A stretch of DNA of 62,345 nucleotides, filler included, from Bonamia ostreae (GCA_040357525.1; 18 parts of 18 records of this genome joined end to end with filler, not necessarily neighbours in it); one strand, 5' to 3'. Shown: positions 1,088-56,061, numbered from the whole stretch's first letter. The notes: generated from the letters alone by a model not told the origin. Made by a program: numbers and translations.

Positions 1088-3406
1088 ATGAAAATTTATC
1101 CGGTTCTAAACTCGAGAATTTCTAAAATGTTAAAAGCTTTTAGAAGAACCTTTTCAAAAACATCCTTCGTAAAAGCAAAACCAAAATTAGTCGACAAAAA
1201 TTTTGCGGTGACTTAATTTTCATAAAATCCTTTTCACAAAACCATTTTCAACAAAATCATTACAAAATAACAAAGCTCAAAAATTTCATCGGTCCTTTAA
1301 TAGCGTTAGTTGGAAGACCAAATGTCGGGAAAAGTTCGTTGTTCAATAGATTGGCTGGAAAAGAAGTAGCTATCGTCCACAAAACAGCCGGTAAAATATT
1401 TAAACAAAAAAAGGAGTTACGCGCGACCGAAAATTGGGCCAAGGCTACTTATCTGATTTAAAATTTATAATGGTCGATACTCCGGGCTTTTGCGAGCTCA
1501 GCCATAAAGAAAAACAGGACTTAAAAAATGTCCGAAATGCAATGGTTCGTCAATCGGAATTGGCGTTAAAAAACGCGCAAATGGCTTTATTTGTCGTCGA
1601 TTCGAGTGATGGCCTAACAGCAGACGATTATTCGTTTTGCAAATGGCTGAGGTCGCAGAATCTGAACAAAAATTTAAAAAACAATATTATTTTAGTTGCC
1701 AATAAAGCGGATGGCAAAAATAAAAATGTTTTTTCGACTTTCAGCGCTTTTTTCAAATTTTGACGAATTTTAGCGCTTTTTTTCGAATTTTAGTGCTTTT
1801 TTTTCAAATTTTGACAAATTTTAGTGCTTTTTCCGAAATTTAGTACTTTCTTCAAATTTTGACGAATTTTAGTGCTTTTTTCGAATTTTGACGAAATTTA
1901 GTGCTTTTTTCTAAGTTTAGCGCTTTTTTTTTCAAATTTTGACAAACTTTAGTGCTTTTTCCGAATTTAAGCGCTTTTTTTTCAAATTTTGACGAATTTT
2001 AATGCTTTTTTCCGAATTTTAGCGTTTTTTTTTCAAATTTTGACGAATTTTAGTGCTTTTTTCGAATTTTAGTACTTTCTTCAAATTTTGACTAATTTTA
2101 GTGCTTTTTCGAATTTTAGCGTTTTTTCAAATTTGATATTTTGGCGAATTTTAGTGCTTTTTTCAAATCAGAAAAATTGTAAAAACGCTAAAATAATGTA
2201 AATCAGTCATTTGCAGATGACGTTTATTCGCTAGAAATGGGCGAACCGACATATGTCTCAGCAAAACACAACGAAGGAATGGCCGATTTGTACAAAACGT
2301 TGCAACCGAAAATAGACAAAATCAATCAATCCGAAAAAATCTATAACATTGTGGACGCTTTCGATCTAAACAAATTTAGCCAAATGGTCAAAGAAAAAGA
2401 TCCGCTTCTAAAAAGCGACAAAAACAAATCTTTGCAAGTTTCACTAATTTAAAGCGATTTGACTAAATATTAAAATTTGTTAATTTTGAACGAAAAACAG
2501 TTCGCAATAATCGGAAGACCAAACGTCGGAAAATCAACTTTGGCCAACGCCATTTTAAAAAACAGCGACATTTCAGAGCAACGAACGGAATTTAGTCGGG
2601 AAGACAGAGTTGTCACCAGTCCTGTGCCCGGGACAACCAGAGATTCCATTTCGATAAATTTGGTTTTCAGAAATCGGTTTTTCAAACTTATTGACACCGC
2701 GGGATTGGTTGGTCCGGGGAGAATGTCTTGGAAATCGCTGGAGAGAGAAGTCTCCGCGTCGATGGACGACACTTTGAAATCTGTGCAATTTGCGAACGTT
2801 GTTTGTTTGGTGCTAAATATCGGTGAAAACACGATTGCGCAATGTTTTAGTGCTAATATCGACAAAATTTTAATTCATTTTTCGAAATAAAGATAAATTT
2901 TGAAATCGTTTTAGCAAAAATTGATTAAATCGGAAAAATCAATTTTTCGAAAAAAGCTAAATTTTAAAGTAAGAAAAATCGAAAAAATAAACAAGAACGA
3001 TATCGCCAAAGCCATTTTCTCAAAAAAAGATCATTCGATTGCAAACAAAATTTTGGAAGAAGGAAGATCTTTGTTATTGGCGATTAACAAAATCGACAAA
3101 ATTCCAAATCTTAAAAAAATTCCGACGGCAGAAAAAATCGTAAAACAAACAAAAGATTTTGTCGTTGAAAAAATGAAGTCTTTCGCCGGTCGTATCGATG
3201 TGGTCGGAATTTCCGCGAAACAGAATTTGAATATTTGTCAACTTTTGGATAACGTTTTGGCTATTTATTTTAGGCTAAATTTTTATCACTGGCTAAATTT
3301 TTATACTAATTTTCGAAATTGATTTTTTGAATAGGCGATAAGGATACATGAAAAATGGAATGAGAGAATATCGACGTCGAAGATCAACAAATGGATTAAC
3401 GAAGTT
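1088..3406 (+). CDS. der: Der/EngA double-GTPase, ribosome biogenesis, probably mitochondrion-targeted; 3' truncated
   Basis: Two G-domains: [24 protein letters not shown] and [22 protein letters not shown], followed by [14 protein letters not shown]. Introns at 1208-1275, 1391-1413, 1728-2206, 2438-2500, ~2823-2969 and ~3254-3334 restore the frame. N-terminus [13 protein letters not shown] is presequence-like. Confidence 0.92.
1740..2165. repeat. Degenerate minisatellite filling Der intron 3
   Basis: Many variants of CAAATTTTGACGAATTTTAGTGCTTTTTT lie inside GT(1728)...AG(2206). Confidence 0.9.
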
Positions 3407-3506
3407 NNNNNNNNNNNNNNNNNNNNNNNNNNNNNNNNNNNNNNNNNNNNTTAATTAATTAANNNNNNNNNNNNNNNNNNNNNNNNNNNNNNNNNNNNNN
3501 NNNNNN
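3407..3506. other. Artificial contig linker (N44-TTAATTAATTAA-N44), first of 17
   Basis: An identical 100-nt spacer with stops in all six frames recurs at 6903, 10389, 13871, 17351, 20828, 24303, 27773, 31242, 34711, 38179, 41641, 45099, 48556, 52010, 55457 and 58903. The contigs between them decrease in length. Confidence 0.98.
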
Positions 3507-4272
3507 TTGCAAATAAACAACAAATCGAACATAAAATTGCAAAATTTTGATTTGCAAATTAACAACAAATCGAACATAAACTTGCAAAATGATTTGCAAA
3601 ATGAAAATCAAAAACTTCATAAAGAGCCTTTTTCTCAAGACTTAAATCTAATATTTTTTCTTCTGTTGCTGTTGTTCGTCTATGCAAAAGATTTAATTCT
3701 TTTTTGCGAATGCGCTCCAAATTAAAGTTAAATTTGCTTTTCGCCAGCAAATCGGGATGAATCGAAAAATAAATATTTTTTATTTCCTCTAAAGTCATTT
3801 TCTTTTTCAGACTAAAATTTTAGACGATGTTTAATTTGTCCAATTTATCGCATTAAAATTGAAAGCAAAACTCAAAATTGAGTTTCGAAGTTGTGACATA
3901 AAAATTAAAATTATTTTTGTCGATAAATTTCAAAATTGTGTCCACAGTACTTTCCCCAAATTGTTCGTACATTCTTTTAAGCGCTTCCTCGTCAATTGGA
4001 GCCTTCCTCAAATTTTCTTTATTGCCAAAAATTTCATTTTTCGAGTTTAGTTTTTTCTCGAATTTTCGCCATGTGGAAACTGAACAATCGTTATTTTTTG
4101 ATTTAAGAGGAGATTTTCGGATCAAAATTTTTTTCTTTCGCCATTCTGCTCTAGTTTTACTATCTCTTTTGTGATTTCTTTCGACTTTCAACAGCTCTTT
4201 CGCTGGAATGGAAACTTTTTTGAGAAAAGTTTTCTGATTTTCCAAAGGCAATTTTTCAGGCTCATCCGCCAT
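3507..4272 (-). CDS. Hypothetical protein (spliced, runs toward contig end)
   Basis: ATG at 4272 (MADEPEKLPLENQK...), ORF 3853-4272 plus downstream ORF 3559-3798; no motif recognised. Confidence 0.5.
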
Positions 4273-55182: not shown

Positions 55183-55556
55183 ATTAGTAAAAATTTTCCT
55201 CTTGTAAATCTAATAAAGCGATTTGTAAAATCTTTATCCTGCGAAGCGCAGTGATAATATTGAAAATTGTTGTTGTAGAAATAAAAATTTTTTTGATAGT
55301 AATGGCAGTTTTGCATTTATTTGCAGAATGTAACATTGTCCGCGTTTCTTCCCGAGCACGAGGAATTTGGAGGACAGTCTTTGTCCGTGCGGCACTTTTC
55401 CCTGCACCGCATCAAGGACAGTTCCAAATTCCATCTTCCCAAACGGCAATAAATAANNNNNNNNNNNNNNNNNNNNNNNNNNNNNNNNNNNNNNNNNNNN
55501 TTAATTAATTAANNNNNNNNNNNNNNNNNNNNNNNNNNNNNNNNNNNNNNNNNNNN

Positions 55557-56061
55557 GTCAAATTTTCTATTTTGACCAAAATTTTACAAATATTGTCATT
55601 GGAAGATCTAGATTTTAAAATACGACTGGGAGTCCATGCGTATCCCAACCAAAACGCCTTTCGACATGGTGCCCCGTTTGAGAAGCGTAGCGCGTCACAA
55701 CATCTTTAATGGTGCCAGCGAGAATGTGCCCGTAATGGGGCAATCCTGTAGCAAAAGGAGGACCACTTTGTCATAAAAAATGTTATTGTTTTTTGAATTA
55801 AAATAGGTTTGACCAAATCTACAATAATTTTGAAAAATTGATGATTTAAAATTTAGTCGAGAACTGAAATTTTGAGATTTGATCAATTTAAAAATCAAAC
55901 TCGTAAAAAGAAAATGGCTTCCGCCCTTTTGAAAGCTCAAGAGATCTTTTAAAAGCGTTAATCCGTTTCCAATATGACAGAATTTCCAGTTCGATTTTTG
56001 GAAAACTGACTGTTGATGGAATTGGATCAAATGTAAATTTTTGCACTGTTTTAGTGCTCAT
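55557..56061 (-). CDS. IARS1: Cytosolic isoleucyl-tRNA synthetase, N-terminal part (missed by the ORF track)
   Basis: [14 protein letters not shown]...[32 protein letters not shown]...[13 protein letters not shown]. Confidence 0.96.

Follow-up and report, generated by a model that had tools for sequence, protein, structure and literature searches.

How does a spliceosome choose its donor sites when these hold little information beyond GT? The question is raised by a 62,345-base stretch of DNA (the window), which consists of 18 contigs of 3,343–3,406 bases each, sorted by size and separated by spacers of the form N44-TTAATTAATTAA-N44. Fifteen of these contigs belong to the protist Bonamia ostreae (Haplosporida, Ascetosporea, Rhizaria), an oyster parasite. 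The first exon of the NAD(P) transhydrogenase beta gene (PNTB) is 100% identical over 186 amino acids (aa) to the NCBI entry MHBO_001845, "hypothetical protein, partial [Bonamia ostreae]", and the protist is therefore B. ostreae. The other three contigs (c9, c12 and c18) were treated as foreign and excluded from the final intron counts. Most eukaryotes have a purine at donor position +3, and standard U2-type GT-AG introns combine a GTRAGT donor with a YTNAY branch site, a pyrimidine tract and a YAG acceptor. The B. ostreae introns are read from a lineage-specific, low-information code: an A-rich exon end, GT, T at +3 (about 76–87%) with a minor GTAA class (about 11–13%), T or A at +4, absence of G from +5, followed by a T-rich 5′ half, an A-rich 3′ half without a pyrimidine tract, and an AAG, TAG or CAG acceptor. 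By general standards, the unusual trait is the scarcity of purines at +3 and of G at +5.

Read-level evidence for splicing comes from one contig, c11, on which run X4 (RNA by guess) can be set beside the DNA runs X1 and X2. Contigs of X4 omit four stretches, 35452–35937 (486 nucleotides, nt), 37225–37269 (45 nt), 37104–37126 (23 nt) and 37870–37888 (19 nt). All four are GT..AG, with the donors GTTAAT, GTTTTT, GTTTCA and GTTTTT in turn (4/4 GTT), and X1 and X2 keep them unspliced within one 2.4-kilobase contig. The spliced contigs agree with the guess that X4 is RNA. Contig edges in X4 also fall exactly on predicted exon edges: 34892 (with unaligned letters upstream), 35938 and 37448 are contig starts, and 35451 and 37674 are contig ends. 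By word depth, which is a crude measure, the only listed X4 contig crossing the 35452 donor unspliced stands at 38, against 10,989 and 15,613 for the contigs that stop at the donor and start at the acceptor. X7 gives no cover on c11 and X4 none at 36280–36844, and neither is counted as evidence. The four stretches are genuine spliceosomal GT..AG introns of B. ostreae, and their donors are used in vivo. For the last of them the first ab initio boundaries, 37837–37888, were overruled by the X4 RNA in favor of 37870–37888.

Two further lines of evidence are independent of our intron calls. NCBI gene models use three GTT introns, two in P0001 (PNTB) and one in P0121 (53498–53519, GTTGCT, 22 nt), and Pfam coordinates continue over eight further junctions in the GTPase, ZIP, AMP-binding and UTP25 genes. 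Together, spliced X4 contigs, NCBI gene models and Pfam profile continuity independently support 15 introns, of which 13 have GTT donors and two GTAA (p = 0.001 against a background of 0.45, p = 0.007 against 0.53); their acceptors are AAG in seven cases, TAG in four, CAG in three and GAG in one.

In the same part of c11 (36229–38017), X2 departs from the window sequence by seven single-base changes and three small indels, and X4 has G>C at 37696; these differences look like strain polymorphisms.

The wider set of introns was called with a Viterbi gene finder that carries no splice-site weights and works from GT..AG, open frames, a 3-periodic Markov coding score and a mild length prior. GT..AG is thus presupposed, and it is tested by only the four RNA-fixed introns and not by the other 51. 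Early runs of the gene finder joined adjacent genes through long false introns. An intron was taken as high-confidence if both flanking exons had at least 30 nt and a coding score of at least 3, with no N. The introns of the Smg8/9 gene are absent from the counts because the AT-rich Smg8/9 and tubulin-tyrosine ligase genes score negative in the coding model. Sets of 56 introns, where given below, still include one intron of the foreign-looking c18, which was dropped afterwards to leave 55.

T is the predominant base at +3, both among all predicted introns of the 15 protist contigs (n = 67; T 50, A 8, C 6, G 3) and among those of high confidence (n = 55; T 42, A 7, C 5, G 1), only eight of which have a purine there. 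The dominance of GTT donors claimed in the initial annotation thus stands (42/55, 76%, and 13/15 with independent support), at a lower proportion than its hand count of 48 of ~57 (84%). Its two further statements on the donor are borne out: GTRAGT is absent (0/67), and G at +5 is rare (6/67, or 9% of n = 55). The share of T falls from 76% at +3 to 56, 44 and 45% at +4, +5 and +6 (n = 55), and the donor 4-mers (n = 56) are GTTT 29, GTAA 6, GTTA 6, GTTG 4, GTCA 3, GTTC 3 and GTAT 2, with three others seen once each. Measured against intron composition, +3 has 1.9 times the T and 0.36 times the A. On the exon side the donor is A-rich, with A at 58% at −3, 47% at −2 and 35% at −1, where G has 29%. 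Summed over −3 to +6, the information beyond GT is ~1.7 bits relative to exon decoys, so that the donor alone cannot pick true sites out of roughly 950 exonic GTs. A genome-wide avoidance of GTAAGT was also considered, and the shortage found (3 sites against 6–12 expected under Markov orders 1–3) is too weak for a claim.

The introns are not uniformly tiny. Of the 55, 26 measure 17–34 nt, with a peak at 19–23, and 29 measure 41–527 nt; the 486-nt intron is among those confirmed by RNA. Their composition is skewed along their length, from 47% T in the first half to 46% A in the second half of short introns, and from 43% T in the first 20 nt to 44% A in the last 20 nt of long ones. It was asked whether the T-rich 5′ end and the A-rich 3′ end of the same intron form a hairpin, and this idea was rejected (2.62–3.00 pairs of 6 within introns against 2.55–2.71 between introns, permutation fraction 0.15–0.56). 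An apparent shortage of lengths divisible by three among the tiny introns (4/26) is no evidence either, since the gene finder is unable to call stop-free introns of such lengths.

At the 3′ end, A leads at −3 to −5, −7, −8 and −10 (41–63%) and roughly ties with T at −6 and −9 (n = 56), and no pyrimidine tract precedes the acceptor within the A-rich last 10 nt of these 56 introns. This agrees with the initial description of the 3′ ends as A-rich and without a polypyrimidine tract. The acceptors of the 55 introns are AAG 29 (53%), TAG 16, CAG 9 and GAG 1, and NAG trinucleotides across the genome have A 42%, C 20%, G 21% and T 17%; GAG is therefore avoided and TAG enriched, and the AAG majority is mostly compositional. 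The branch-like CTAA/TTAA motif that had been proposed just upstream of the 3′ end is not recovered as a signal: within 18 nt of the 3′ end it occurs in 18/56 introns against 16.8 in shuffles, and YTRAY, in 7/56 against 9.5, is likewise not above chance. In the 26 tiny introns A peaks at −7 (17) and −8 (15), where, judging from base composition, a branch adenosine could plausibly lie. None of the 20 most frequent donor hexamers listed for the 56 introns is of the U12 type, (A/G)TATCCTT.

Both long introns at 1728–2206 and 35452–35937 contain tandem repeats (at about 1740–2160 and 35500–35900) with units of a few tens of bases. For the latter intron, X1 and X2 show a form that omits 116 bases (35606>35723) as well as several loose ends, a pattern suggestive of either a length polymorphism or a collapsed assembly.

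It could be argued that T at +3 reflects nothing more than the T-richness of an AT-rich genome and of intron 5′ halves, combined with an arbitrary choice of GT, and that there is no selected donor code. GTT indeed outnumbers every other GTN across the genome, with T as the third base in 43–56% of cases depending on the region. Its share is 45% among 939 exon decoy GTs taken with their flanks, 44% on the sense strand of exons (954 GTs), 47% on their antisense strand (1,271) and 43% in unassigned DNA (2,572). The +3 signal amounts to 0.43 bits, short introns have 47% T in their first halves, the share of AAG acceptors is near its genome-wide value, and the branch-like motifs occur no more often than chance predicts. 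The most demanding control comes from shadow introns called by the same program in false antisense genes (n = 53; +3 T 28, A 11, C 8, G 6), in which T reaches 53%. The excess in the real introns nevertheless exceeds each of these backgrounds. In tests computed before the single c18 intron was removed, 42/56 with T at +3 gives p = 5e-6 against 0.45 and p = 6e-4 against 0.53 (binomial), and p = 0.018 against the shadow introns (Fisher). Introns that owe nothing to the program are GTT in 13/15 cases, including the 4/4 exact RNA joints. In addition, at +3 A stands at 13% and G at 2%, compared with 36% and 12% in intron interiors. Among the findings that would count against it, the initial annotation named a +3 T no more frequent than intron composition predicts; T lies instead above the decoy (45%), shadow (28/53) and interior (39% T, 36% A) backgrounds alike. 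An artefact of composition or method is thus very improbable. The +3 T excess is real but moderate, because GTT is already the commonest GTN throughout the genome.

How such donors are read is a question of the snRNAs (small nuclear RNAs). Scanned with Rfam at E up to 1, the window yielded 0 hits and thus no gene for U1, U2, U4, U5 or U6. The available text of Roy and Bowser (10.1101/2022.06.08.495308) gives GUAAGU, with a purine at +3, as the standard donor consensus and ACUUAC as the canonical U1 recognition sequence. GTTT-type donors without G at +5 pair with ACUUAC at +1 and +2 only, from which we infer that recognition cannot rest on the standard U1 duplex. The reading that we favor, and whose chances we put at about even, is that the major spliceosome would read Bonamia donors without a conventional extended duplex to the canonical U1 5′ end, and that GU with a U-rich +3/+4 would be proofread by U6, U5 and Prp8. 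The check would take place mainly at the U6 ACAGA stage (U·G at +3 and U-A at +4) and by U5/Prp8, while the first choice among decoy GTs could be aided by intron shortness, the T-to-A skew and U-tract-binding proteins. Splicing errors would be cleared by nonsense-mediated decay (NMD), and U1 itself would be either canonical yet weakly paired, or dispensable.

Several observations are consistent with the favored reading. With the U6 pairing scheme of Roy and Bowser (10.1101/2022.06.08.495308), real donors fit at a mean of 1.96 of 4 positions and decoys at 1.54 (p = 6e-4). The same source, as far as its available text goes, describes U1 that is uncompensated despite atypical donors in yeasts, Giardia, Trichomonas, Thecamonas and the Mamiellales. 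On the B. ostreae branch the supplement of PMC11069148, in its accessible part, lists "mRNA splicing, via spliceosome" among enriched losses (9/328 vs 77/12517, false discovery rate 0.006). Within the window, an RNA recognition motif (RRM) protein at 50458–50973 (−) matches human RBM42 (PDB 6qw6 chain R) with E = 5e-41 over aligned residues 60–169. It is a clear homolog of RBM42, a protein of the tri-snRNP (tri-small nuclear ribonucleoprotein) and pre-B complex, so that B. ostreae retains this peripheral spliceosome factor at least. A gene for Smg8/Smg9, which act in NMD, is likewise present, and was counted as support alongside the RBM42 homolog.

A number of points weigh against this reading. 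The fit of the U6 type is no better than that of the shadow introns (1.96 vs 1.64, p = 0.075) and, lacking the G-C pair at +5, may only restate T-richness; it is suggestive at best. The canonical U1 pattern fits real donors slightly better than exon decoys (1.91 vs 1.38 of 7 positions, p = 0.002), mainly through the exon side (−2 A, −1 G), so that some U1-type pairing may persist. Forty of the 55 introns are called ab initio only, the five GTC cases and the single GTG case are probably errors, and exact percentages such as the 76% of +3 T are soft for these reasons. To our knowledge, Entamoeba is the sole other lineage with U at both +3 and +4 of its donors. In that lineage U1 is compensated, according to the text available of 10.1101/2022.06.08.495308. 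Finally, the supplement of PMC11069148, in its accessible part, lists an orthogroup "U1 snRNA binding" as a gain of B. ostreae, which suggests that a U1 snRNP is present and perhaps important.

The comparison with Entamoeba brings in the first rival, a co-evolved U1, which we hold to be nearly as likely as the favored reading, though still on the doubtful side. Here the 5′ recognition sequence of U1 would be altered to place A's opposite +3 and +4, GUUU(U) donors would form a Watson-Crick duplex with it, and splicing would be otherwise conventional. In Entamoeba GUUUGU makes up 88–90% of donors and U1 now reads AACAAAC, and Mastigamoeba has another compensated variant (Roy and Bowser, 10.1101/2022.06.08.495308, available text). 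As that text describes them, Entamoeba donors share with those of Bonamia a U in place of the purine at +3, a U at +4, AT-rich short introns, occurrence in a parasite, the lack of pairing with ACUUAC and a better potential fit to the U6 ACAGA box. In Bonamia T is the majority base at both positions (76% at +3 and 56% at +4, n = 55; GTTT 29/56). The specific preference for T over A at +3 relative to intron composition (1.9-fold up and 0.36-fold, respectively), the decay of T from +3 to +6, which resembles a weak consensus around one complementary sequence, and the gained U1-binding orthogroup (PMC11069148, accessible part) all point the same way. The differences are considerable, however. In Entamoeba G at +5 and U at +6/+7 are nearly fixed and introns are few (same source, available text), whereas Bonamia has G at +5 in ~9% and T at +6 in 45%, is intron-rich (at least 55 introns in about 50 kilobases, many of ~20 nt), and has far more degenerate donors (GTTT 29, GTTA 6, GTAA 6 and GTTG 4 of 56); GTTTGT is not among the 20 commonest donor hexamers listed for the 56 introns. 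The seven GTA introns of the 55 (six GTAA, one GTAT) would mismatch such a U1, an all-A-U duplex is weak, and compensation is absent from most lineages with atypical donors, according to the available text of 10.1101/2022.06.08.495308.

A second comparison is offered by the mikrocytids Mikrocytos mackini and Paramikrocytos canceri, for which the available text of PMC10245619 reports 224 highly conserved introns, all of 16–17 nt, and only U2, U4 and U6 snRNAs and 17–19 spliceosomal proteins. They are, like Bonamia, Ascetosporea and parasites of oysters or crabs with extremely short introns, for which spliceosome reduction has been discussed in that text. Bonamia introns differ in being 17 to about 500 nt long and weakly conserved, and in occurring also in metabolic genes (PNTB, AMP-binding enzyme). 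Other uniformly tiny introns are found in heterotrich ciliates (15–16 nt) and in the chlorarachniophyte nucleomorph (18–21 nt), according to the same partial source. As suggested for mikrocytids, U1 could have been lost in B. ostreae or replaced by an unrecognizable substitute, such that splicing would start directly with donor recognition by tri-snRNP/U6 in very short introns. The donors offer canonical U1 no usable complement past GU, and splicing genes are among the losses on the B. ostreae branch (PMC11069148, accessible part). On the other hand, B. ostreae lies outside the clade of Paramyxida and Mikrocytida in which the main early loss of splicing genes occurred, its introns are termed canonical, and the U1-binding orthogroup is present (all from the accessible part of PMC11069148). 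Moreover, definition by length alone is implausible for the half or so of its introns that measure 41–527 nt, and the failure of Infernal to find U1 in relatives may mean divergence rather than loss. We consider the loss of U1 improbable.

A further comparison is with the GUAUGU lineages (Saccharomycotina, Giardia, Trichomonas), whose donors, on the available text of 10.1101/2022.06.08.495308, have drifted from complementarity to an unchanged U1. They share with Bonamia a pyrimidine at +4 that mismatches U1, and in GUAUGU it pairs with U6; they keep +3 A, +5 G, a strict consensus and few introns, whereas Bonamia alters +3 and has no +5 G. Compared with standard U2-type introns, those of Bonamia have the GT/AG ends, are removed from RNA and carry an A-rich zone 7–8 nt before the acceptor, but lack GTRAGT (0/67), a pyrimidine tract and any branch motif above chance, and have A at −3 in about half. 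Our literature searches, which did not extend to the figures of papers, found no description of a B. ostreae donor consensus. In its accessible part the genome paper (PMC11069148) speaks of "canonical introns", about 2 per mRNA, and a short mean coding sequence, from an annotation made with default funannotate and an external transcriptome. The initial annotation went too far in presenting the system as undescribed, given that Entamoeba GUUUGU donors with a co-evolved U1 and the 16–17 nt introns of mikrocytids are already known. The Bonamia donor code, real and weak, has these as its nearest known counterparts. The mechanism proposed in the initial annotation, compensatory changes in U1/U6 or intron definition through length and protein contacts, finds partial support.

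We regard it as plausible, with somewhat less than an even chance, that in B. ostreae, and perhaps in haplosporidians generally, an intron-rich genome has replaced R by U at +3 throughout its donors and dropped the +5 G, with the U1 recognition sequence either rewritten to be A-rich or out of donor choice. With a rewritten U1, donor/U1 co-evolution would have occurred independently once more beyond the Archamoebae (Entamoeba, Mastigamoeba), and Rhizaria would have its first example. If U1 is instead out of donor choice, even introns of 19 nt would be defined by U6/U5, intron length and the T-to-A skew. According to the available text of 10.1101/2022.06.08.495308, the atypical donors described so far go with strict motifs and intron-poor genomes; Bonamia combines an intron-rich genome with a weak consensus centred on the "wrong" base. 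It offers a clear-cut way to distinguish co-evolution of U1 with donors from a U1 that has become dispensable, in a clade that also holds the 16-nt introns and minimal spliceosome of mikrocytids, and the genome and transcriptome data of B. ostreae are public.

The code also bears on published annotation. The UTP25 gene (53378–55456, +) is represented by the public model MHBO_001856 (P0121), a protein of 171 aa that ends in SQKVE at a TGA inside the 19-nt GTT intron 53907–53925. Homology to UTP25 runs on for 1.2 kilobases past this stop, through five or more tiny introns absent from the model. A search with the UTP25 exon for longer homologous proteins gave none at E of 1e-10 or better, because the public model is truncated. 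Since the model stops inside an intron, tiny GTT introns are only partly captured by the published annotation. If such truncation is common, the published ~2 introns per mRNA and the short mean coding sequence would put intron density too low, and the proteome of a notifiable pathogen of oysters would be broken into pieces.

Table 1. Introns and related features of the window. "Ab initio" denotes the Viterbi gene finder alone unless further evidence is named; all lengths are in nucleotides.
Feature	Position	Strand	Basis
PNTB intron, 486 nt, GTTAAT..GAACAG	35452..35937	+	X4 joint 35451>35938; P0001 joins SYI/MCKAM; Pfam PNTB 252>250
PNTB intron, 94 nt, GTTCCT..CAAAAAG	36167..36260	+	P0001 joins LKEN/GARVRF; Pfam PNTB 333>330
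Acceptor AG (..AAAAAG/G), donor beyond contig	34890..34891	+	X4 contigs start 34892, loose ends before
Intron, 23 nt, GTTTCATAATCTGTAATCGAAAG	37104..37126	+	omitted by X4, kept by X1, X2
Intron, 45 nt, GTTTTT..AAAAAG	37225..37269	+	X4 joint 37224>37270, 3-letter ambiguity
Intron, 28 nt, GTTTTT..CAAAAG; alternative donor GTTTAT at 37358	37420..37447	+	ab initio; X4 contig starts 37448
Intron, 20 nt, GTTATCAAATATTATTAAAG	37675..37694	+	ab initio; X4 contigs end 37674, next starts 37697 (weaker evidence)
Intron, 19 nt, GTTTTTCGATAAATTTTAG	37870..37888	+	omitted by X4, kept by X1, X2
Der/EngA-like GTPase intron, 23 nt, GTAAAA..AAAAAG (minor GTAA class)	1391..1413	+	Pfam MMR_HSR1 32>29; ab initio
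Intron, 479 nt, GTTTTT..AATCAG, tandem repeat inside	1728..2206	+	ab initio
Intron, 63 nt, GTTTCA..AAACAG, before second GTPase domain	2438..2500	+	ab initio
Intron, 126 nt, GTTTTA..TTAAAG, within second GTPase domain	2844..2969	+	ab initio
Intron, 81 nt, GTTTTG..GAATAG	3254..3334	+	ab initio
Intron, 27 nt, GTTTTT..AAATAG	4511..4537	+	ab initio
Intron, 277 nt, GTTTTT..AAATAG	4765..5041	+	ab initio
Intron, 56 nt, GTTTAA..TTTTAG	5966..6021	-	ab initio
EBP2 intron, 22 nt, GTTTAA..AAACAG	9519..9540	-	ab initio; Pfam Ebp2 in upstream exon
Intron, 21 nt, GTAAAA..TGAAAG	11392..11412	-	ab initio
Intron, 69 nt, GTCACA..CATTAG (doubtful)	11199..11267	-	ab initio only
Intron, 129 nt, GTTGAA..CAAAAG	12393..12521	-	ab initio
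ZIP transporter intron, 24 nt, GTTTTTTGTTTTTTAGTTTTTTAG, takes out in-frame TAG	15802..15825	+	Pfam Zip 198>204, same frame either side of stop; ab initio
Intron, GTTCCT.., 17 nt (or 26 nt, 19291-19316), acceptor uncertain	19300..19316	-	ab initio
Intron, 20 nt, GTTGGA..TTTTAG	18916..18935	-	ab initio
Intron, 25 nt, GTTAAC..AAATAG	18855..18879	-	ab initio
Intron, 41 nt, GTTTCA..CAATAG	18760..18800	-	ab initio
Intron, 28 nt, GTTTTC..TTTTAG	18586..18613	-	ab initio
Intron, 74 nt, GTTTTT..AAAAAG	17727..17800	-	ab initio
Intron, 68 nt, GTTAAA..TTTAAG	20059..20126	-	ab initio
Intron, 34 nt, GTAACA..TTAAAG	23083..23116	-	ab initio
Intron, 26 nt, GTAATT..AAATAG	23503..23528	-	ab initio
Intron, 124 nt, GTCGCT..AAAAAG (doubtful)	21525..21648	-	ab initio only
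Intron, 79 nt, GTTTCC..AAATAG	21180..21258	-	ab initio
PPR intron, 138 nt, GTTTTA..ATAAAG	25384..25521	-	ab initio
PPR intron, 124 nt, GTTTCT..CAATAG	25050..25173	-	ab initio; PPR repeats either side
Intron, 137 nt, GTCAAT..TAACAG (doubtful)	24577..24713	-	ab initio only
AMP-binding enzyme intron, 20 nt, GTTTTTTGCGCTAAAACAAG	32697..32716	+	Pfam AMP-binding 273>279; ab initio
Intron, 77 nt, GTTTTA..AAAAAG, then AMP-binding_C	33240..33316	+	ab initio
Intron, 453 nt, GTTAGT..CCTAAG (doubtful)	33451..33903	+	ab initio only
Intron, 446 nt, GTCTCT..CCAAG (doubtful)	41891..42336	-	ab initio only
Intron, 32 nt, GTCAGA..TGAAG (doubtful)	41793..41824	-	ab initio only
RGS-domain gene intron, 113 nt, GTTTAT..TCAAAG	45527..45639	+	ab initio
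Intron, 472 nt, GTTTTT..AAAAAG	47352..47823	-	ab initio
Intron, 291 nt, GTTAAA..TATAAG	51157..51447	-	ab initio
Intron, 87 nt, GTATCA..CCCAAG	50960..51046	-	ab initio
RBM42-like gene intron, 20 nt, GTTTTCCGTTTTAATAAAAG	50892..50911	-	ab initio
Predicted intron, 527 nt, GTGATT..TTTCAG (c15); probably an intergenic gap, two genes wrongly chained	49940..50466	-	ab initio only; flanked by RBM42-like and RBBP4-like genes
RBBP4/CAF1C-like intron, 250 nt, GTTTGA..TAAAAG	49368..49617	-	ab initio; CAF1C_H4-bd upstream, WD40 downstream
UTP25 intron, 22 nt, GTTGCTTTAAATCACGAAACAG	53498..53519	+	P0121 joins SETN/LSKKL; ab initio
UTP25 intron, 19 nt, GTTGAATGACTAAATTTAG, read through in public model	53907..53925	+	Pfam UTP25_NTPase-like 94 before, 134 after three small exons/introns
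UTP25 intron, 19 nt, GTTTTCTTCCTCACAAAAG	54008..54026	+	ab initio; mini-exons of 27 + 15 codons fill Pfam 95-133
UTP25 intron, 34 nt, GTTTTC..GATTCAG	54073..54106	+	ab initio; mini-exons of 27 + 15 codons fill Pfam 95-133
UTP25 intron, 21 nt, GTAAAT..TTTGAG (minor GTAA class, GAG acceptor)	54404..54424	+	UTP25_NTPase-like 226>225; ab initio
UTP25 intron, 20 nt, GTTTTTTTTGCGAAAAGTAG	54833..54852	+	Pfam Utp25_C 80>76; ab initio
UTP25 intron, 20 nt, GTAATT..ACAAAG	55047..55066	+	ab initio
Intron, 153 nt, GTTCGG..TTGCAG	55174..55326	+	ab initio
Intron, 23 nt, GTTTTC..TAAAAG	58706..58728	-	ab initio
Compositional outlier contigs	c9 27873-31241; c12 38279-41640; c18 59003-62345		CpG, trinucleotides

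The three outlier contigs differ from the remaining fifteen in CpG observed/expected (0.70–0.87 vs 1.15–1.95) and are set apart by the first trinucleotide component. Pfam scans, which covered all 203 stop-to-stop open reading frames (ORFs) of at least 75 aa in the window, gave no matches in c9, c12 or c18. They are probably host or other foreign DNA remaining in the assembly. Runs labelled organism A contain 22% of the words of 31342–41340; yet X7, one such run, covers none of c11.

The eukaryotic genes recognized by Pfam encode a Der/EngA-like GTPase, Smg8/Smg9, EBP2, an importin-beta N-terminal domain, a ZIP transporter, FHA and PPR proteins, a tubulin-tyrosine ligase, an AMP-binding enzyme, PNTB, MATH-BTB, RGS, RBBP4-like, Rpr2, RRM and FtsJ proteins, and UTP25. 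ARAGORN found 0 tRNAs over the window. A 609-aa ORF at 56511–58337 (−) has a strong coding score and matches no Pfam family at E up to 0.01. The coding model was trained on genes richer in G and C; pieces of Smg8/Smg9 at 7227–8546 (−) and an intron-free 407-aa tubulin-tyrosine-ligase ORF at 25931–27151 (+) have a negative coding score, and codon usage seems heterogeneous among the genes of the B. ostreae genome.

Homologs of P0001 were found at 80 loci in metagenome contigs, at 52–60% identity over matches of ~1.2 kilobases each on short or multi-gene contigs; to judge by the match table only, no intron-bearing haplosporidian relative is among them. The closest relatives of Bonamia PNTB, P0002 and P0004 (71% and 69% identity), are a protein filed under the amphipod Hirondellea gigas and a EukProt entry, respectively; the former could stem from a haplosporidian-like parasite represented in the amphipod transcriptome.

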